A stretch of DNA of 64,000 nucleotides from Promethearchaeota archaeon (GTDB lineage: Archaea > Asgardarchaeota > Hermodarchaeia > Hermodarchaeales > Hermodarchaeaceae): contig JBHLPH010000001.1 in NCBI GenBank assembly GCA_048939625.1, positions 1-64,000 of the forward strand. Reading direction: 5' to 3'. How positions within the stretch are numbered: the first letter of the stretch is position 1; each line of letters opens with the position of its first letter. The notes beneath the pieces are model-generated. The model was not told the DNA's origin and did not search any database. It saw only the letters and a program-made list of their open reading frames with translations. Shown here piece after piece: positions 55,486 through 63,944 of the stretch. The position numbers and the translations under genes were made by a program.

Positions 55486-55659
55486 GCGTAAGCACCTTTT
55501 TTTCTGAAACTCTTGGGGAGATAGGTTAGCTAAAAGCTTACGTGTTGGAAACCTATTCGTTTTTCGAACGAAATATGGGACGCAAGCGAGATTTTTAAAC
55601 TGTTGTACCAATTAAGAAGTACTACAGCGGAGAACTATTTGGATATCGGAGGAACTGGT

Positions 55660-56046
55660 ATGCCCTCAACCCTGGATTCGTTGACAAACATCTTAGAGGA
55701 GTTAAATAAGACTGGTCGAGTCAAAGCAAGTATCGTCGCAACCGATGAAGGATTCGTTATTGCTTCAGCAGTTAGCCGGGGAGTCGATGAAAAGGTTGCA
55801 GCAGCCATGGGAAGCTTTGTTTTCAACACTGCAGACCGGGCAAGAGATGAACTAGAACTTGGCCTGATCCGCGATATCACTATTCGATGCGAAAAAGGGA
55901 CCTTGGTATGTAAATCCACCTTATTAGAGGATAACCGACCGGTAGTTCTAGCTGCACTAGTACCCCGAAAAACCCGATTCTTCATTCGGGAAGTTAACAA
56001 CGCCTTACGAAGAATACGCGAAGTTCTAAGAGAGTTAGAAATTTAA
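55660..56046 (+). CDS. Roadblock/LC7 domain protein
   Basis: ASIVATDEGFVIAS...VAAAM..A.RA..EL.LG; ATG behind GGAGG. Confidence 0.9.
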   Translation: MPSTLDSLTNILEELNKTGRVKASIVATDEGFVIASAVSRGVDEKVAAAMGSFVFNTADRARDELELGLIRDITIRCEKGTLVCKSTLLEDNRPVVLAALVPRKTRFFIREVNNALRRIREVLRELEI

Positions 56047-56084: not shown

Positions 56085-56822
56085 TTGTTTCTGGATAAAT
56101 TAAATGAGGAAGAGCGGATACTCACCTCCCTCAGGGATGGGTCACCACTTCGACAATTGTTGCTTGCAACAAAGGGCGAAACGGCGTTTCAGACAATCCA
56201 ACTCCCCGAAAACATTCAAAATCAAACTTTTTTACACACATTAGAATCAGCTCAGCTTCTTCACAAAGATGCAAATAGCTGGACCTTTCCAGGATATGCC
56301 AAGGTTCAAGTTGCCATTCGCGCTCTCCAGCTAGGAGAACCGAATCGAACAGTACTTTCAGCCTTAACCTGGCAGGAGTTCGAAGAATTTGTCGCTCGCG
56401 TATTAACTTTTCATGAATTCCAAGTGTGCCATCGATTTCGATTCTCAGATACTCGTCGGTATGAGATAGATATCCTAGCAGGTCGACAGCCGGTATTATT
56501 TTGCATTGATTGTAAGCAGTATGGTGTCCGATTGAATAAAGCATCGAGTCTTCGCACAGCAGCAGATGAACAACTACACCGAACCCGAGCCCTGGCAAAT
56601 GCCTTCGCTGAGTTTCAAGTGAAAATTGGCTGTCTTGACTGGTCTAGCCCTGTTCTCATTCCAATGCTTGTTACAATGCTCATTGAAGATATCCAATTTC
56701 ACGAAAAGATCCCAATTGTTCCCGCTTCACTCTTGAACGCTTTTCTTCTCAAATACGAAGAGCGCCTAGATTCTTTATGCACAGTAGAACCAAGTTCTAG
56801 TCGACAACTCCGCCTTATCTAA
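56085..56822 (+). CDS. Mrr-like PD-(D/E)xK endonuclease
   Basis: LTWQEFEEFVA, YEIDILA, IDCKQY, QLHR. Confidence 0.78.
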   Translation: MFLDKLNEEERILTSLRDGSPLRQLLLATKGETAFQTIQLPENIQNQTFLHTLESAQLLHKDANSWTFPGYAKVQVAIRALQLGEPNRTVLSALTWQEFEEFVARVLTFHEFQVCHRFRFSDTRRYEIDILAGRQPVLFCIDCKQYGVRLNKASSLRTAADEQLHRTRALANAFAEFQVKIGCLDWSSPVLIPMLVTMLIEDIQFHEKIPIVPASLLNAFLLKYEERLDSLCTVEPSSSRQLRLI

Positions 56823-57150
56823 GCAGCCGTGGAGTTCCCCCATTTTTCGCAATGGCGCAATTGAGAATCCACAAAAAATCTTCAAGAAGCCTCAGTAACT
56901 GATCGAGATTCTGATGAGATCCAGAAGAAAGCATTGAGCCACTCTCATTGATAATAGAATGGCCTTCTTGGACTAGGAATACGTGGATGTGTTCAAGGTT
57001 GTGAAAGAGCCTATTTAATTCAGTTAGGCGTTCTTGCGTGATACGTTTCTCGCCGATCCCACGACCAGGTCCACGTCGTCGACCTTGTTTTAGATCTGTC
57101 TCACGATCTAATATCGTTGGAGATTTGGCTTGTTTATGGGGTTCTTGCAT
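56815..57150 (-). CDS. Hypothetical protein
   Basis: GGAGG SD; 21 nt downstream of the co-oriented regulator-like gene. Confidence 0.6.
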   Translation of the reverse strand: MQEPHKQAKSPTILDRETDLKQGRRRGPGRGIGEKRITQERLTELNRLFHNLEHIHVFLVQEGHSIINESGSMLSSGSHQNLDQLLRLLEDFLWILNCAIAKNGGTPRLLR

Positions 57151-57171: not shown

Positions 57172-58935
57172 TTAACCGGTAAAATGCACACTTCCTGTCT
57201 CCTGAATTTCTCGGACCTGTGATTCAAGATGATCAAATGCGGTTGGTAAGTATTCACGAAACCATTGCCATTGCCCCAACTCAGTATTGAATTGACAGCG
57301 TTGTCGAACCTGATTCATGATGAAATCTTTCGCACCACTTCCATAGAATACAGCTGCATCGAAGTCAGTTTGTTCAAGAAAAAGACGATTGAGTTCTCTT
57401 TCTACTTTGAGTGCTAAGCCTATTGGTAAACCAAAAGCAACAATACAGCCTGGAGTTGGATGATGAAATATGGAGCCCCCGTATAGAGGAGCTTCGCGAC
57501 AGCCTGAGAGGAAATTGCGAACTACTTCTTCACTCCCTTCGAGTATGATGAAGAGCGTTTCATTCAGTCCAAGATGATACATTGACAAATCTGGGCGTTT
57601 AAATAACACCTCTTGTGTGATTAATGATTTGAGATGTCGCCGAACAACGTGGACTGATTGACCTAGAATTAAGGCGAGGTCTTCCGCTGTTGTATCAGGT
57701 TTGACCTGCGATAGGATTTGATATGCAAGAGGGTCTAAATCTGCAGGATCGACATTAGGTTCAGCGTACTTGTAAATATAGGGTTGGCTTAGGATCTCCC
57801 CATACCCTTCTCGAATTAGAACATCACGAAGATACCGTACCCAGGCTACCCATCTAAACCTTTCTGACACGGGGACATCTGCTTCGTGGGCGAGATAGCT
57901 TCGAAGGTTATAGCCATTGAAAACGCCACTTAAGGGGTAGAAACGGTAACGGAGAAGATGACCTAACCCTACCAATTCTTGTAACCATTCTTGCAGTCGT
58001 CGAAGGCGTAATCGGGGGAGGGTGTAACTGAGAAGAAAGGGAGCACCACTTCCTCCGAATCTGTGAATTTTCCGGAGGTAGGGACATTGTTCAAAATATC
58101 GTGATACCCTACTTCCAGGGGCAGGATAAGCAAGGACTGCAATATGGTTTAGTCGTATTCGTGGATAGTTTATGCGGAAGTATCGGGAGAAAAGGAGTTT
58201 TTCACGAAAACTGGCCAGGTAGTTGCTTAAGCTTCCTAGAGAATATGATGAAATTTGTTGGAGCTGTCGAAGAGTCGATGTGGGATTTTCGATCATCAAA
58301 TGAAGAACGCGTAATTCTTGTTCGTTCAAGGGGGAGGCATAATTGAGCATAAATGTCTCCAGTAACTCAACATATTCTCGTGAGGTTAGAGGAGTGATCG
58401 CAGGTTCGAGTTCATCGAAATGAGGAAGGATTCGTTTGAGAAATGTTCCTTGGGTTACTCGGTTGAATAGGGGGAAAGAGTACGGTGCATTGTAGATTGT
58501 GTCGCCAAAAAACTGGCGTGGGGAAACTACTTGCCATAATTTCATGAGTTGGCTGAGATTAGGTTGAGCGGTGTGATGATAGGCACATAGGATGCCTAAA
58601 TCCCCACTTTCGGGAACACCCTTTACTACAGAGGGAATCAAGGTTGTGTACATTTCTCGGTAGAGGACTGTTTTAAGAAGGAGAGGACGAGTCAGGAGTT
58701 GAGAAGCGATACGGAATTTTCCCGCTCCGTATGAACCACAGAATCGTGGGCTTGTAAGAGTGTCATCGTCATAAAACTGAATTCGCGTAGGTAGGAGTGG
58801 TGAACGGTCTGTCAACTCAGTGATTTCTCGCTGAATGGTTTTCAATTGCTTCGTGATTTCCTGCCGATGGTGCCGACGTTGATTCGTGGTGAGTTTTTCT
58901 TTTGCAGTATGTTGTGTACGTGCCGTAGTCGCCAA
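57172..58935 (-). CDS. Large regulator-like protein with tandem Lrp-type wHTH modules (paralogue of 13043-15076)
   Basis: LMIENPTSTLRQL..SLGSLS, INYPRIRL, LDPLAYQIL..AEDLALILGQSVHVVRRHL. Confidence 0.7.
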   Translation of the reverse strand: MATTARTQHTAKEKLTTNQRRHHRQEITKQLKTIQREITELTDRSPLLPTRIQFYDDDTLTSPRFCGSYGAGKFRIASQLLTRPLLLKTVLYREMYTTLIPSVVKGVPESGDLGILCAYHHTAQPNLSQLMKLWQVVSPRQFFGDTIYNAPYSFPLFNRVTQGTFLKRILPHFDELEPAITPLTSREYVELLETFMLNYASPLNEQELRVLHLMIENPTSTLRQLQQISSYSLGSLSNYLASFREKLLFSRYFRINYPRIRLNHIAVLAYPAPGSRVSRYFEQCPYLRKIHRFGGSGAPFLLSYTLPRLRLRRLQEWLQELVGLGHLLRYRFYPLSGVFNGYNLRSYLAHEADVPVSERFRWVAWVRYLRDVLIREGYGEILSQPYIYKYAEPNVDPADLDPLAYQILSQVKPDTTAEDLALILGQSVHVVRRHLKSLITQEVLFKRPDLSMYHLGLNETLFIILEGSEEVVRNFLSGCREAPLYGGSIFHHPTPGCIVAFGLPIGLALKVERELNRLFLEQTDFDAAVFYGSGAKDFIMNQVRQRCQFNTELGQWQWFREYLPTAFDHLESQVREIQETGSVHFTG

Positions 58936-59225: not shown

Positions 59226-60164
59226 CTATTTTGGAGTACGCCGAGTGAGGGAATGGACTTCGCAGGTTCGGTTTTTGCATTCTGTGCATTCAGAGCTTTG
59301 GTGAACCCAATATTGGTCAAAGCGTTGGATGAATTGTGTGACGAATTCGAGGTTATTGGTCCAGGTGGCTTGCTCGCCGATCCCGGATAGCCCCTTGGCT
59401 GTGAAGTTTGCACTCCCTTCTAGAACCTCTGAATCGTCAATAATGACAGATTTGATGTGCATTTGTGCACAGACAAGAATTTCAATCGATGGAGCTTCTT
59501 GAAGAAGTTTCTCGACGGCTTCTTGGAAGTGCTTGGATGCAGCCCCAAATGCTTCTGGTTCACGAATGATGATTCGAATTTGAACACCTTGGTTAGCTTT
59601 TGTGATTAAGCGGTCGAGGAGGTTTACGTCACAGGATTCCGTTCCAACAGTCACTGTTTTGACATCTGTAAAGTTTTGAACCATGATCCGAATACTTTGA
59701 ATTGCCCGATCTAACATCTCCACTAGGGTGAAGGCAATTGAGATCCCATTAAGGAGTTGATGCTGCATAACTTCTGAACCAGTAGAGGAGGGAAGCGAAG
59801 TTTTTTCATCAGTTAATTCGATTTCTTCGACAGTGTCTGTTTCTGGAGATTCAACTGCTTTTTCAACAGCAGATGCAGCTGGAAGGAGATTTTCGTCGTC
59901 TGGAAAAAAACTGTCAAGGGAGTCAACCATGTGTAATGGGAGGGGTTCTTCACGCCTTAGCGCTTTGGTTATTTCAACGAGACTTCGGGCCCTCTGATAT
60001 GCAAGTTTGGACGCTGAACCTGTAGAATGTTTAGCAAGTTCATTAAACGCTTCGGCAGCCTTTAGAGCAGCGTTGGAGGCTCGTTGAAAATCGCCTTGAC
60101 TCATGAACTTGCGGATCAATTGGAGTGCTTCTTTTGCAACGCGTCCAAGTCGGGCCGTGCTCAT
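59226..60164 (-). CDS. Single-HKD phospholipase D/nuclease domain protein with an N-terminal MIT-like helical bundle
   Basis: HIKSVIID + GSANFT..G; three amphipathic N-terminal helices; acidic linker; C-terminal CxxC...C..H. Confidence 0.8.
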   Translation of the reverse strand: MSTARLGRVAKEALQLIRKFMSQGDFQRASNAALKAAEAFNELAKHSTGSASKLAYQRARSLVEITKALRREEPLPLHMVDSLDSFFPDDENLLPAASAVEKAVESPETDTVEEIELTDEKTSLPSSTGSEVMQHQLLNGISIAFTLVEMLDRAIQSIRIMVQNFTDVKTVTVGTESCDVNLLDRLITKANQGVQIRIIIREPEAFGAASKHFQEAVEKLLQEAPSIEILVCAQMHIKSVIIDDSEVLEGSANFTAKGLSGIGEQATWTNNLEFVTQFIQRFDQYWVHQSSECTECKNRTCEVHSLTRRTPK

Positions 60165-60436: not shown

Positions 60437-60937
60437 TCACTCTAAAAATAAGAGAAGAACAACAGCTCCAAATCCCAGTCCAAATAGTAGACTGCCAAGT
60501 GTTGTGTAGGACTTCAATTCGAAGAGTGCAGGAAGGACAAGGAACGGGAGCGGGATGATGATGGGAACAAGAAGAAGGGTCCAAGCATAGATAAAAGGGC
60601 GAAGAGAATAATTGATGAGAAGAAAGGTAACAGTGAAGACACTGAGTAGACATATACTGGAATTGAACCGGTGATTGCCCTGCTTAGAGGAAGATTGGGC
60701 TAAATCAGTGAGAAGGAGTCTAGAGAGTTGTGGATCGAAATCTGAAATGGGTTGGTCCGTTGGGATTTTTTGGCGTGACTGGGATGGATTTTCAATTATT
60801 AGAAAGGATTGATTTTGTAGGGTTTTGGATTTGTGGTGGCTTCGATATTTTCGATAGATTCGCAGAGTGATGATAATCTCAAGAAAAAAGATAAACAGAA
60901 TCACCATTGTGAGTAGCGAGGAGCAGTTAAGGTTCAC
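60437..60937 (-). CDS. Small membrane protein
   Basis: GTG start behind GGTGAT, overlapping the upstream stop; about 4 TM. Confidence 0.55.
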   Translation of the reverse strand: MNLNCSSLLTMVILFIFFLEIIITLRIYRKYRSHHKSKTLQNQSFLIIENPSQSRQKIPTDQPISDFDPQLSRLLLTDLAQSSSKQGNHRFNSSICLLSVFTVTFLLINYSLRPFIYAWTLLLVPIIIPLPFLVLPALFELKSYTTLGSLLFGLGFGAVVLLLFLE

Positions 60938-63900
60938 TGTGATCACCTGCTTCCTTCTGTGTGAAAGTTGATTCTGAGAGTATTTTGAATAGCGGTTGAA
61001 TGAGTTCTCTGTTATTACCTTGTAATAGGATATGAAGTTCTTGTCCTTTCTTTTCCCAGGCAAGGACTACGCGGTCATTGGAATAGCGGTTCTTGCCACT
61101 CTTAGTTAATTCTAACTTCTGGATAACCTGCGCTAGTTCGTGCTTTATTTGAGGAGTAAGGCGGAATTGGTGTTCGGCATCATCTTTACTTGTTCCCCAA
61201 TGAATTTGCATTCCCTGATCTCCCGGGAGAACGAACCGGGGAGATTGAGAGGTATTAGCCTGGTTTTGGTGCTGAGAACGTTTTCCATTTCTTAACCAGC
61301 AAATCCCAATAATACAGAGTGCGATTAGAAATGCAGGAGGTAGCAGAGTGAGAATGGTGTTCACTGTGGAATAGCCAACATAAATTGGACTTTCAACAGC
61401 AAGGATTCGTTGGTCACTCGAGTACAGAGCGAGGGATAATGAACGAATGCCGGTATCCATGATTGCCGTGGGGACATATTGGAGTTGGAGGATGATTGAT
61501 CGGGTCGTGTTACTTTGGACGATGACTTGGGTGAATCCCAAGAAATTCGAATCTGCCATAATGTCAAAGATACGGGTTTGGGTTCCTAAGTTGGTGAGAT
61601 TCACCATGACTGAGAAAAGTTGATTCTGCAGGGTAGATTCGGGCTTTTCAAGAACTGTAAGGATGAAGGCAGGTTCAACAATGAGGGGAACGTGGTCGGC
61701 CAGTAAGAGTAGTGAGGAAGTTGAAATCTGGAGAGAGAGGTTATAAGTGCGTGGTGTGCAGCTTGGCTGTATTTCAAGTGTAATATGAAAGACGTTTTCA
61801 CCTGGAATGAGTAAGAGATTGGGTATAGATGTGAATCCAACCTCTTCAGCACTGAGACTGAGGTTTACGTATACTGTGGACATCCAAGAGGAGTTAATTT
61901 TACAAAAAATTGTGAGAAGTTCACCCTGTGGGATAGATGGAAGATATTCGAGGTGTGCTGAGCATAATGCGCGGGGAACAAAGAGAAACCAACCTTCTAG
62001 CTCCAATGCGGAGTGTGCGTGAATCAAGTAGGGCAGTGGGACTTTTAAAAAGAGTGAGACAGACGCAACCCCTGAACCATTTGTGATAACCTGGAATTCC
62101 ATTGAGGTCCCTTGGACTGTCAGGTTGAGGTGGACTAGTTGATCTGTAAGACCCGTCCAATTGGTGAAATCGCCAACGAATATATAGAGTGTTAGAGTCC
62201 TTCCTACGACTGGTTCTTGTTGGTCGAGTCCTAGTCCGATTCCCATCATTTTATGTTCAATAAGCCAGGCTAGTCCGTTTTCGGCAATTGTCTGTACAGT
62301 TGGGGTGTTTGGTAAATTGGGCCCTAAGAAAAGAACCGGAATCGATGTTAATGCCGGAGGAAAATAAGCTAGCGATGACCAGATTGTATTCCCTACTAAG
62401 ACGAGACTTGAGTTGTGGACTGAAACTGCGTGAACAGTTGAGCAATTTCGGAATAACTGGGCAGCTGCACCATTAAGGAGTGAAGAACTCTGTATGACCG
62501 GGTGAAATACTTTGAGCCCATTCACTGTTAGCAGATTCGCACCAAGATCTGTAAAGGTGAGATGTGCAGAATGGTGTAAAAATAAAGCACCCCCCTTACC
62601 CAAAGCAAGGAGAGGAAGGGAATGTCGTGTTAAGTGTAGAATCATTGCATCATTAGTGAAGACTAAAGGATCAATGATTAGGGCTTGATATTTTCCCAGT
62701 CGTGGGTCTAAGTAATCAGTGATTGTAATGTTTGCGATTTCCTTGAAAACCGGAACCCAATCCGCTGATTTATTCGGAGGTGTGGGAGGCAGATCAAAGA
62801 CAAAATCGAAAACAAGACCAAGGATTAGTTGAGTCGTATTTATGAGGTTAATGAGCTTGCAGTGTGACACTCCATCATAGAGAGAATGTTTGTATGGATC
62901 CGGATATTGATTAGTTGATATAGTGATAGCAGGAATTCCATTGGTATGAAAGGTCCATTCGGAGATGCACCAACCAAAATCGTGGTGGAGGTCCTCAATG
63001 GTTTCAATTCGTGGAGTTTGCGTATCGACTAGTGGAATGTTCAGATTCACTGATGTTTCGAGAAGGCTTTGCTGAAGAGGGGAAACATAATCACCGGAAA
63101 AATAGTATAGGGCAAGGATGGTGGGCCAGACGAGCCCAGCATATGCAATTTCATCGATATTTAAGATAAATGCTGTTGATGGGTTGATGCCTAGCGTGAG
63201 AAGACCATGAGAGAGGAGTTGGTTTGAGCCCCATAAGGATTGGGTCCCGTTTCCTTCTTCACCCCCTAAAAATGCAAATAACACATTCCACTTATTGAAG
63301 GATCCAGGGCAGGCAACAAGGATATGTAAGGCTTCAAGTAGGGTTGCAATCCCAGCAGCATTATCATTAGCCCCATGAGCGATGGTGGTTGATAGACCTA
63401 GCAAGTCATACCGGGCAGAATCGAGGTGACAAGTGATTATTATTGTGGAGGCCGAGGTATTAATGCTCCAGGGAGTAACATAGAGATTCCGTGTCCAGAA
63501 ATTCTGGTAGATGAATGTAGTTCCTGTCCATGTGGCTTTAGGGATGCAAAACCAGTCACTAACGAATGAAGTTCCAATCGACATTAGATATGATGCAATA
63601 AAATCAATTGAAGCATTTGCATCCGGATGGAAGGGATGTCTACTATTATATCCAGCAAGGAAAGTGAGAAGACCCATTAGACGTGTCGAATTTACGCAAG
63701 TGGCCATTTCTCGTTGCCAGTAGGCTAGACTTGAACTATTGGTCAGATAAGCGACGGATGGAGGGGACAATACGGGTGGAGAAACAGAGCAGGAATTCAG
63801 AGAGGGCAGAGCCGCGACTTGTGACCAAGCATTAGGGGTTGTAAGAGACACAGAAAAACACGGTTCTGTGAAAGGTAGCATTGAGGTGATACTACTAAGC

Positions 63901-63944
63901 AGCAGACAAATGAATACCAGCGAAAGAACTGTGACTCGCCTCAT
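60927..63944 (-). CDS. Large secreted M28 metallopeptidase with Ig-like domains and a C-terminal TM anchor
   Basis: CHLDS, GANDNAAG, GEEG, NIDEI, YKHS..D; beta-rich repeats; TM then cytoplasmic tail. Confidence 0.85.
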   Translation of the reverse strand: MRRVTVLSLVFICLLLSSITSMLPFTEPCFSVSLTTPNAWSQVAALPSLNSCSVSPPVLSPPSVAYLTNSSSLAYWQREMATCVNSTRLMGLLTFLAGYNSRHPFHPDANASIDFIASYLMSIGTSFVSDWFCIPKATWTGTTFIYQNFWTRNLYVTPWSINTSASTIIITCHLDSARYDLLGLSTTIAHGANDNAAGIATLLEALHILVACPGSFNKWNVLFAFLGGEEGNGTQSLWGSNQLLSHGLLTLGINPSTAFILNIDEIAYAGLVWPTILALYYFSGDYVSPLQQSLLETSVNLNIPLVDTQTPRIETIEDLHHDFGWCISEWTFHTNGIPAITISTNQYPDPYKHSLYDGVSHCKLINLINTTQLILGLVFDFVFDLPPTPPNKSADWVPVFKEIANITITDYLDPRLGKYQALIIDPLVFTNDAMILHLTRHSLPLLALGKGGALFLHHSAHLTFTDLGANLLTVNGLKVFHPVIQSSSLLNGAAAQLFRNCSTVHAVSVHNSSLVLVGNTIWSSLAYFPPALTSIPVLFLGPNLPNTPTVQTIAENGLAWLIEHKMMGIGLGLDQQEPVVGRTLTLYIFVGDFTNWTGLTDQLVHLNLTVQGTSMEFQVITNGSGVASVSLFLKVPLPYLIHAHSALELEGWFLFVPRALCSAHLEYLPSIPQGELLTIFCKINSSWMSTVYVNLSLSAEEVGFTSIPNLLLIPGENVFHITLEIQPSCTPRTYNLSLQISTSSLLLLADHVPLIVEPAFILTVLEKPESTLQNQLFSVMVNLTNLGTQTRIFDIMADSNFLGFTQVIVQSNTTRSIILQLQYVPTAIMDTGIRSLSLALYSSDQRILAVESPIYVGYSTVNTILTLLPPAFLIALCIIGICWLRNGKRSQHQNQANTSQSPRFVLPGDQGMQIHWGTSKDDAEHQFRLTPQIKHELAQVIQKLELTKSGKNRYSNDRVVLAWEKKGQELHILLQGNNRELIQPLFKILSESTFTQKEAGDHSEP

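Follow-up and report, generated by a model that had tools for sequence, protein, structure and literature searches.

A divergent MIT-type domain joined to a single-HKD phospholipase D-fold domain in Hermodarchaeota: a candidate ESCRT-III-linked phosphodiesterase

The first 64,000 nucleotides of contig JBHLPH010000001.1 (assembly GCA_048939625.1, a Promethearchaeota archaeon of the Hermodarchaeaceae), here termed the window, encode on the minus strand at 59226..60164 a protein in which a basic, divergent domain of the MIT type is followed by an acidic linker, a phospholipase D (PLD) superfamily domain with one intact HKD motif, and a Cys-rich tail. It is a conserved Hermodarchaeota-specific gene and an archaeal version of the MIT-adaptor-plus-enzyme theme, a theme not described in archaea in the literature searched. 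The explanation favoured here, with a probability of about 0.5, is that the product is a phosphodiesterase docked by its MIT-like domain on ESCRT-III, the machinery that cuts membranes, with nucleic acid the favoured substrate. No paper on an archaeal MIT-PLD protein came up in full-text literature searches, and the ESCRT surveys consulted treat archaeal MIT domains only within Vps4/CdvC (PMC10936438, PMC8970359, PMC7240154).

Layout and conservation of the protein

The gene and its parts are as follows.

59226..60164, minus strand: whole gene, 312 amino acids plus stop, ATG start (open reading frame list and translation).
59949..60164, minus strand: residues 1-72, divergent MIT-type domain, a basic three-helix bundle of isoelectric point (pI) 11 (AlphaFold2, HHalign, Foldseek).
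59901..59948, minus strand: residues 73-88, helix 4, short, amphipathic and conserved (EPLPxxLVDALDSFYP), counted in the N-module (AlphaFold2 and conservation).
59766..59900, minus strand: residues 89-133, linker, acidic, disordered and poorly conserved (predicted local distance difference test, pLDDT, 28-32; pI 4.05; conservation 0.30).
59295..59765, minus strand: residues 134-290, PLD-fold domain with a single HKD, Nuc/NucT/Zucchini in type.
59469..59471, minus strand: Cys232, four residues N-terminal of the catalytic His, which probably supplies the Cys cluster with its fourth ligand (superfamily invariance).
59406..59459, minus strand: residues 236-253, catalytic motif H-I-K-S-V-I-I-D-D-S-E-V-L-E-G-S-A-N (translation and 27-orthologue conservation).
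59229..59294, minus strand: residues 291-312, C-terminal tail, basic, C293-x2-C296-x4-C301-x2-H304, putative metal-binding knuckle (translation and conservation).

AlphaFold2, given a 27-sequence alignment, predicts helices at residues 3-23, 26-45 and 49-70 with a short fourth at 77-85, then disorder at 90-132 (pLDDT ~30), an alpha/beta domain of PLD fold at 135-287 and a tail of low pLDDT, in a model from which metal is absent. Modelled alone, the N-domain reaches a pLDDT of 90.4 and a predicted TM-score of 0.82, with its first helix at 3-22. The pI is 11.0 for the N-domain and 5.0 for the PLD domain, the tail is basic, and the linker has 13 Asp and Glu to 2 Lys and Arg. Among 27 orthologues of 50-81% identity the mean frequency of the commonest residue is 0.79 in the N-domain, 0.80 in the PLD domain and 0.78 in the tail, against 0.30 in the linker, and within helix 4 residues E73, L75, L79, L83, F86 and P88 are nearly invariant. 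The gene is real and under selection, and no chance pattern. A preliminary description of the window had given the protein a helical N-terminus, an acidic linker, one HKD domain with its motif intact and a Cys/His tail, and all of these are borne out by the translation, Pfam and AlphaFold2, the six motif residues being invariant or nearly so in the 27 orthologues. Its three N-terminal helices stand, and what it missed is the fourth, at 77-85. The protein lacks a signal peptide and a transmembrane segment; on the favoured reading it is a cytosolic modular enzyme.

The N-terminal domain

Is the N-terminal bundle an MIT domain? In profile-profile comparison by HHalign with 20 Vps4 MIT domains taken from related Asgard genomes, the N-domain profile aligns over 60 columns, spanning all three helices, at a probability of 86% and P 5.1e-6. 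Its score of 32.9 compares with a maximum of 15.0 (minimum P 0.031) from 60 column-shuffled profiles and with 16.2 from the reversed profile. Set against a single Vps4 MIT domain of the same genus it gives P 1.7e-4, with 33% identity. The predicted fold, an antiparallel three-helix bundle of ~70 residues, superposes on solved MIT domains, and by Foldseek the best PDB matches are MIT domains, Sulfolobus CdvC coming first (2w2u, 2v6y; TM-score 0.82-0.84, root-mean-square deviation 1.8-1.9 Å), with many further Vps4, SKD1, MITD1, NRBF2, spartin and katanin MIT entries, that of MITD1 (4a5x) at a TM-score of 0.80. An ESM-Atlas shape search gave N-terminal bundles of ~370-420-residue AAA ATPases, VPS4A among them, in eight of its ten rows, and a language-model feature search gave solely MIT-type clusters, at lead-level scores of 0.75-0.79. 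The wide VIA-align search is non-discriminating, as the MIT domains at its ranks 2, 7, 16, 25 and 27 are level with generic bundles.

Several other searches returned little. The N-domain profile against PDB sequences retrieved just designed helical repeats and one chance match, Pfam and NCBIfam gave noise alone on the N-domain (e.g., PaREP1 at E 0.011), and both a search of the own genome for N-domain paralogues and a word-indexed search with residues 1-90 came back with nothing beyond, respectively, the gene itself and the family itself. The sequence homology to bona fide MIT domains is of moderate strength, short of conclusive. As three independent lines, profile-profile, fold and architecture, all point to a divergent MIT domain, homology to MIT is considered very probable, and the preliminary description's term, MIT-like, holds for a divergent bundle of that type, in keeping with the Vps4 comparison, the folds and the Jordarchaeia homologues described next.

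Relatives with the same modules

In Jordarchaeia and Freyarchaeum a homologous PLD and Cys-tail module (window-family profile, E 4.7e-35) is preceded, at the same N-terminal position, by a canonical full-length Pfam MIT domain (35.9 bits, cut-off 30), which HHalign aligns with Vps4 MIT at 97.4% and P 1.3e-11; the direct HHalign comparison of this domain with the N-domain of the window protein is weak (P 0.015). The Jordarchaeia/Freyarchaeia family (P0194-P0209; 272-289 residues; MIT, intact HKD PLD and Cys tail) occurs in six of six genomes, for instance at L054:1583-2410, plus strand, in a closed 3.58-Mb genome labelled Candidatus Freyarchaeum deiterrae. In two loci the gene lies directly downstream of one for a DUF2070 membrane protein, and its public annotation is merely 'phospholipase D-like domain-containing protein'.

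The N-module, helix 4 included, is found in a sister genus (35% identity over 84 residues) fused to a Transglut_core domain (E 3.2e-6), so that it behaves as a portable adaptor. This fusion is in all four sister-genus genomes (L052:96-929, plus strand, in G018:C44; also G015:C143, G016:C121 and G017:C287) and was not found in the genus to which the window belongs. The transglutaminase-like domain appears to have the Cys, His and Asp positions, and the layout resembles that of eukaryotic MIT-calpain-7.

The own genome also has a paralogue of 278 residues on contig C78 (L015:1438-2274, plus strand), again MIT-like plus PLD plus Cys tail, whose N-domain HHalign aligns with Vps4 MIT at 90.7% and P 1.3e-6. 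Its motif is degenerate, H-F-N standing for H-x-K and GTAPLT for GSANFT, and it is probably an inactive pseudo-enzyme; further copies are at L094:3294-4136 and L013:8001-8840. In three assemblies, from at least two genera, the paralogue divergently adjoins an XPB-type helicase gene (ResIII in three of three, ERCC3_RAD25_C in two of three), and in one assembly DUF790/Bax1 is nearby. What looks like an independent inactivation is seen in a copy within the Hermodarchaeota family itself (P0043, 292 residues, L089), where the catalytic His and Lys are lost (IQNK replaces MHIK) and there is no Cys tail, the N-domain being retained at 77% identity. A metagenome contig carries a GC-rich, thermophile-looking relative of 256 residues (P0054, L012:8001-8771, plus strand) with a sub-threshold MIT match (E 0.0034), an active-type PLD domain and a Cys tail; the genes around it are RPA-OB-like, PCNA and Hjc, with numerous small open reading frames, possibly on a mobile element.

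A tree of the PLD and Cys-tail modules, covering the active Hermodarchaeota form, the inactive paralogue, the Jordarchaeia MIT form, P0054 and MIT-less forms (including one with a Heimdallarchaeota and one with a Helarchaeota label), makes them one Asgard clade with support 94/87. The interior is a polytomy of subfamilies, and the tree neither supports nor rules out a single origin of the MIT fusion. More generally, Pfam-MIT matches outside Vps4 are numerous in other Asgard genomes, one of which has 15, and non-Vps4 MIT proteins may be widespread across these archaea. Example loci are G026:C5:76116-81296, G026:C33:255-3992, G024:C1:464616 and G034:C4:58932, and the large reading frames with such matches include one of 2130 residues with at least five MIT-like stretches, one of 1578 with four, and proteins of 1044-1060 residues.

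The enzyme domain and its substrate

Pfam PLDc_2 (PF13091) matches residues 147-286 over all 132 profile positions (E 1.2e-18; 67.7 bits, cut-off 27). The signature HIKSVIIDDSEVLEGSAN is intact as H236-x-K238-x4-D243-x6-G250-S251-x-N253, and the 27 orthologues show no variation at K238, G250, S251 or N253 and almost none at H236 or D243. The predicted domain has the Nuc-like alpha/beta fold. A profile search of PDB sequences gave MitoPLD/Zucchini (1.8e-5), Nuc (7.8e-5) and PLD3 (4e-3); in profile and structure comparisons together NucT and Nuc are closest, with Zucchini and PLD3 also neighbours, and NCBIfam and PADLOC add sub-threshold matches to DpdK, DrmC and NucT. On the favoured reading the domain is catalytically competent.

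The tail, SECTECKNRTCEVH, holds C293, C296, C301 and H304, which are conserved in orthologues. In the wider superfamily C232, C293 and C296 are invariant in 12 of 12 members and C301 is kept in at least 90%, and the C-x2-C-x4-C pattern is also kept in the related Asgard PLD clade. From these four conserved cysteines, C232 and C293-x2-C296-x4-C301, we infer a metal site that would staple the tail to the catalytic strand.

Which phosphodiester would be cut? A nuclease is favoured, with about as much said for it as against it, because NucT, Nuc, Zucchini, PLD3, DpdK and DrmC are the neighbours of the domain and because clade relatives have DNA-linked contexts, adjoining XPB/Bax1 or RPA-OB/PCNA/Hjc genes. 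A lipid phosphodiesterase is considered rather unlikely.

The link to ESCRT-III

The own genome has two adjacent Snf7-family ESCRT-III genes, for proteins of 203 and 210 residues (contig C56, L001:828-2076). By sequence pattern the 203-residue protein is Vps2/24/46-like, and its C-terminus is a conserved acidic helix, LPEPEKRVSELEKEIERLKEEG, whose L-x3-I-x2-L-K spacing is MIM1-like. Asgard Vps4 MIT domains bind ESCRT-III tails of this kind (Lu et al., PMC7240154). Co-folding of the N-domain with the last 55 residues of the Vps2/24/46-like protein gave an ipSAE of 0.48 (0.53, 0.47, 0.48; best of three controls 0.00), a weak pass of the mark applied, with partner pLDDT 55-68 and contact agreement between runs of at least 1%. 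Of 80 solved complexes 58 reach this mark, as do 2 of 110 mismatched pairs, counts that are only rough with custom alignments, and passes at an ipSAE of 0.60 or below comprise 7 of the 80 solved complexes and both mismatches that passed. Since solved MIT-MIM complexes exist, a pass may also reflect likeness to them, and the co-fold result, at most compatible with binding, is not used as evidence either way. Binding of the N-domain to ESCRT-III in vivo is a proposition that could fall on either side.

Vps4 was not found in the own assembly, which is 87.6% complete, either beside the ESCRT-III pair or elsewhere, the best matches there being CDC48/PAN-like proteins at 41-45% identity. A Vps4 of 387 residues is present in 13 of 14 same-genus genomes, and its absence from the own assembly is most likely an assembly gap.

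Distribution and locus

All 46 full-length homologues (49-82% identity) are from Asgard metagenome-assembled genomes, and the family as a whole comes down to a single 50%-identity cluster plus fragments among 1.84 billion library representatives. Carrier species-level genomes are labelled Hermodarchaeota or Hermodarchaeum, with one Thorarchaeota label and some given only as Promethearchaeota. Among 201 genomes sampled across the phylum, full-length orthologues are single-copy in 17 of the 18 genomes of the window's own family, in both its genera, and were not detected in the other Asgard families sampled.

The shared gene order is the PLD gene, a gene for a protein of 549-587 residues with a double winged helix-turn-helix (wHTH), one for a 110-residue protein, and then convergent Mrr_cat-like and Roadblock/LC7 genes. 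In four of five loci the PLD gene is followed by the wHTH gene, similarly oriented, after a gap of ~290 bp in the window, and of the four orthologous loci examined three keep the block from the wHTH gene (587 residues) to Roadblock in synteny. At the divergent P0042 locus the wHTH and 110-residue genes are missing and an M28 peptidase gene adjoins the PLD gene, the only one of the four orthologous loci where it does. The neighbours in the window are these.

55603-56046, plus strand: Roadblock/LC7 protein.
56085-56822, plus strand: Mrr_cat/NERD-like protein.
56815-57150, minus strand: unannotated 111-residue protein.
57172-58935, minus strand: 587-residue protein with two winged-helix domains.
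60927-63944, minus strand: 1005-residue M28 peptidase-domain surface protein.

A possible mode of action and its rivals

How might such a protein work? It would comprise a basic divergent MIT-type adaptor (residues 1-88), a flexible acidic tether of ~45 residues and a single-HKD phosphodiesterase that may be braced by the four-Cys metal site (C232 and CxxCx4C). In the Nuc family it is established that a homodimer builds a single active site from two HKD motifs, and the PLD domains here would pair in the same way. A homodimer would present two MIT-like adaptors, which could bind the acidic, MIM1-like helices at the C-termini of polymerised Vps2/24/46-like ESCRT-III and so gather the enzyme at division bridges or membrane necks, where nucleic acid would be a likelier substrate than lipid. 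A bolder proposal, and an improbable one, is that an Asgard MIT-MIM code brings several effectors to ESCRT-III, among them this HKD nuclease, the XPB-paired pseudo-PLD and the transglutaminase-like protease, with the window protein clearing nucleic acid trapped in division bridges or vesicle necks. On that view helix 4 (LxxxLxxxLxxF) might be a pseudo-MIM within the molecule, holding the adaptor shut until polymerised ESCRT-III is met.

A number of observations weigh against docking on ESCRT-III or against nucleic acid as substrate. Pfam MIT (PF04212, cut-off 30 bits) has no match in the protein or in 21 N-domains even at E <= 10, and a genome-wide Pfam MIT scan likewise failed to pick up the window protein. 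Foldseek E-values for the N-domain are merely 0.08-0.7. Compared with Vps4 MIT, the N-domain has the conserved fourth helix and a one-turn insertion of four residues in helix 1, so that its ligand could differ. No ESCRT gene is near the PLD gene in the five loci examined, the window included; ESCRT-bearing Asgard lineages outside Hermodarchaeota are without this exact protein, which is therefore no core ESCRT component; and non-specific DNA binders do not usually have a domain as acidic as this PLD domain (pI 5.0).

The docking could be right and the substrate wrong. PLD-generated phosphatidic acid alters lipid shape or charge at the neck in eukaryotic fission, and the ESCRT-III-docked enzyme might act on membrane lipid to that effect, as a head-group phosphodiesterase or transphosphatidylase. 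The domain is, after all, a PLD superfamily member whose best PDB sequence match, MitoPLD/Zucchini, is deposited as 'mitochondrial cardiolipin hydrolase', JGI labels homologues cardiolipin-synthase-like, the acidic PLD surface speaks against avid DNA binding, and the PLD-like domain of MITD1 is described as membrane-binding (Hadders 2012, as cited in PMC9477494). However, with a single HKD, no membrane segment, a basic Cys-rich tail more typical of nucleic-acid enzymes, clade relatives in DNA-repair or replication contexts, and cardiolipin-synthase models scoring 11.5-13.5 bits against cut-offs of 281-290, action on lipid at the neck is unlikely. The annotation of homologues as cardiolipin or phosphatidylserine synthases was rejected, there being one PLDc_2 domain instead of two HKDs and cardiolipin-synthase scores near noise. 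Conversely, the enzyme could be a nuclease and the docking wrong: the MIT-like bundle would then serve self-association or bind nucleic acid or another partner, for instance the 587-residue winged-helix neighbour downstream, in a DNA/RNA-processing or defence nuclease with no part in membrane remodelling. In line with this, ESCRT genes are not adjacent, the wHTH gene follows in most loci and an Mrr_cat-like gene is nearby, DpdK and DrmC are the best PLD models in PADLOC and NCBIfam, three assemblies have the inactive paralogue beside XPB, an N-domain of pI 11 could bind nucleic acid, and the structural MIT match is non-discriminating by VIA-align. But DpdK reaches 39.3 bits (cut-off 100) and DrmC 31.9 (cut-off 133) and partner genes of the Dpd or DISARM systems are absent, the synteny of the locus and its single copy in 17 of 18 family genomes do not resemble a defence island, and the wHTH gene is missing at the P0042 locus and ~290 bp away in the window. 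The profile similarity is specifically to Vps4 MIT, and canonical-MIT forms of the same enzyme exist; a role apart from ESCRT is accordingly held to be improbable. A defence island, be it with DrmC (DISARM) or DpdK (Dpd), was rejected as such, the scores being under cut-offs and the neighbours being wHTH, Mrr-like, Roadblock and M28 genes with no DrmA, DrmB, methyltransferase or Dpd genes. The ESCRT-III-docked phosphodiesterase, with nucleic acid preferred, is the account retained.

Significance

Through the MIT 'binding code' of eukaryotes, ESCRT-III polymers acquire kinases, proteases, deubiquitinases, ATPases and MITD1. If the binding proposed here is real, effector recruitment to ESCRT-III would date to before eukaryogenesis, a case helped by sister proteins that couple this adaptor, or a canonical MIT, with further catalytic or pseudo-catalytic domains. 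It would also offer an initial clue to what Asgard ESCRT sites process in addition to membrane, be it DNA/RNA or lipid. An ESCRT-tethered nuclease in particular would be a prokaryotic counterpart of eukaryotic midbody nucleases, and would be evidence that the coupling of ESCRT to chromatin predates eukaryotes. What is new here comprises the controlled HHalign test, the canonical-MIT relatives in Jordarchaeia, the transglutaminase fusion, the XPB-linked inactive paralogue, the four-Cys site, the MIT_C negatives and the weak co-fold result.

Comparison with known systems

The likeness to human MITD1 (4a5x, 4a5z, 2ymb) is plain: an N-terminal MIT-type three-helix bundle and then a PLD-superfamily fold. 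Is the window protein then an archaeal orthologue, or an ancestral active state whose HKD was later lost in eukaryotes? The shared module order would suit that attractive idea, as would the degenerate-HKD paralogue in the same genome, which shows that inactivation occurs in the clade. Yet the C-terminal domain of the window protein is a canonical HKD PLDc_2 with a Cys tail and not MIT_C (PF16565), which has no match at E <= 10 in the window protein or 11 other superfamily members and was not found above cut-off in the 201 Asgard genomes, and the profile search of PDB sequences did not retrieve MITD1 at E <= 10. MITD1 is likewise not among the 50 best matches of the PLD-domain structure search (Foldseek or VIA; lowest Z among these 11.8), a lower-ranked match being possible. 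MIT_C has its own D/E and HDR site with no HKD, and groups with bacterial BrxL-C and PB-PLD1 (PMC12065111). The window protein has, in addition, a long acidic disordered linker, helix 4 and an N-domain too divergent for Pfam MIT, and its narrow distribution, in Hermodarchaeota orthologues and a canonical-MIT form in Jordarchaeia, argues against vertical descent. The preliminary description had offered both a possible ancestral state and an analogue of MITD1. The former, and with it common descent, is not supported in view of the missing MIT_C match, the different site and the narrow distribution, and is probably wrong, indeed very improbable; the latter fits, the module order being the same and the C-terminal family different, and the likeness is best read as convergent domain architecture. 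In human cells the MITD1 MIT binds the CHMP1A, CHMP1B, CHMP2A and IST1 tails and localises MITD1 to midbodies (PMC9477494).

Nuc (Salmonella, 1byr), NucT (Helicobacter, 6ehi) and Zucchini/MitoPLD (4ggj) possess neither an adaptor of the MIT type nor an acidic tether. The first two are secreted or periplasmic enzymes and Zucchini is anchored in a membrane, whereas the window protein is without signal peptide or transmembrane segment, and its C232 and CxxCx4C cluster is peculiar to the Asgard clade. With the Jordarchaeia MIT-PLD (P0194, 272 residues) it shares the PLD domain and Cys tail, the intact H-x-K...GSxN, the N-to-C order and the clade, at ~25% identity overall, differing in having a divergent MIT-like domain with helix 4 and an acidic linker of 45 residues instead of a canonical MIT and a short basic linker. 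The Vps4/CdvC MIT (2w2u, 2v6y, 2jq9) is the best structural and profile match for residues 8-71, both having a G where helix 1 turns into helix 2, AAE within helix 2 and A...V...K-LR within helix 3; unlike those proteins, the window protein has no AAA ATPase after its N-domain, which is far more basic and has the four-residue helix 1 insertion and helix 4. In eukaryotes the MIT adaptor delivers enzymes to ESCRT-III polymers (PMC9477494), and the adaptor-plus-enzyme logic proposed here is that of calpain-7, AMSH, USP8, spastin and ULK3, the sister-genus fusion to a transglutaminase-like Cys-protease fold being the parallel of MIT-calpain-7. The archaeal fusions, of narrow lineage, appear to be independent of the eukaryotic ones.

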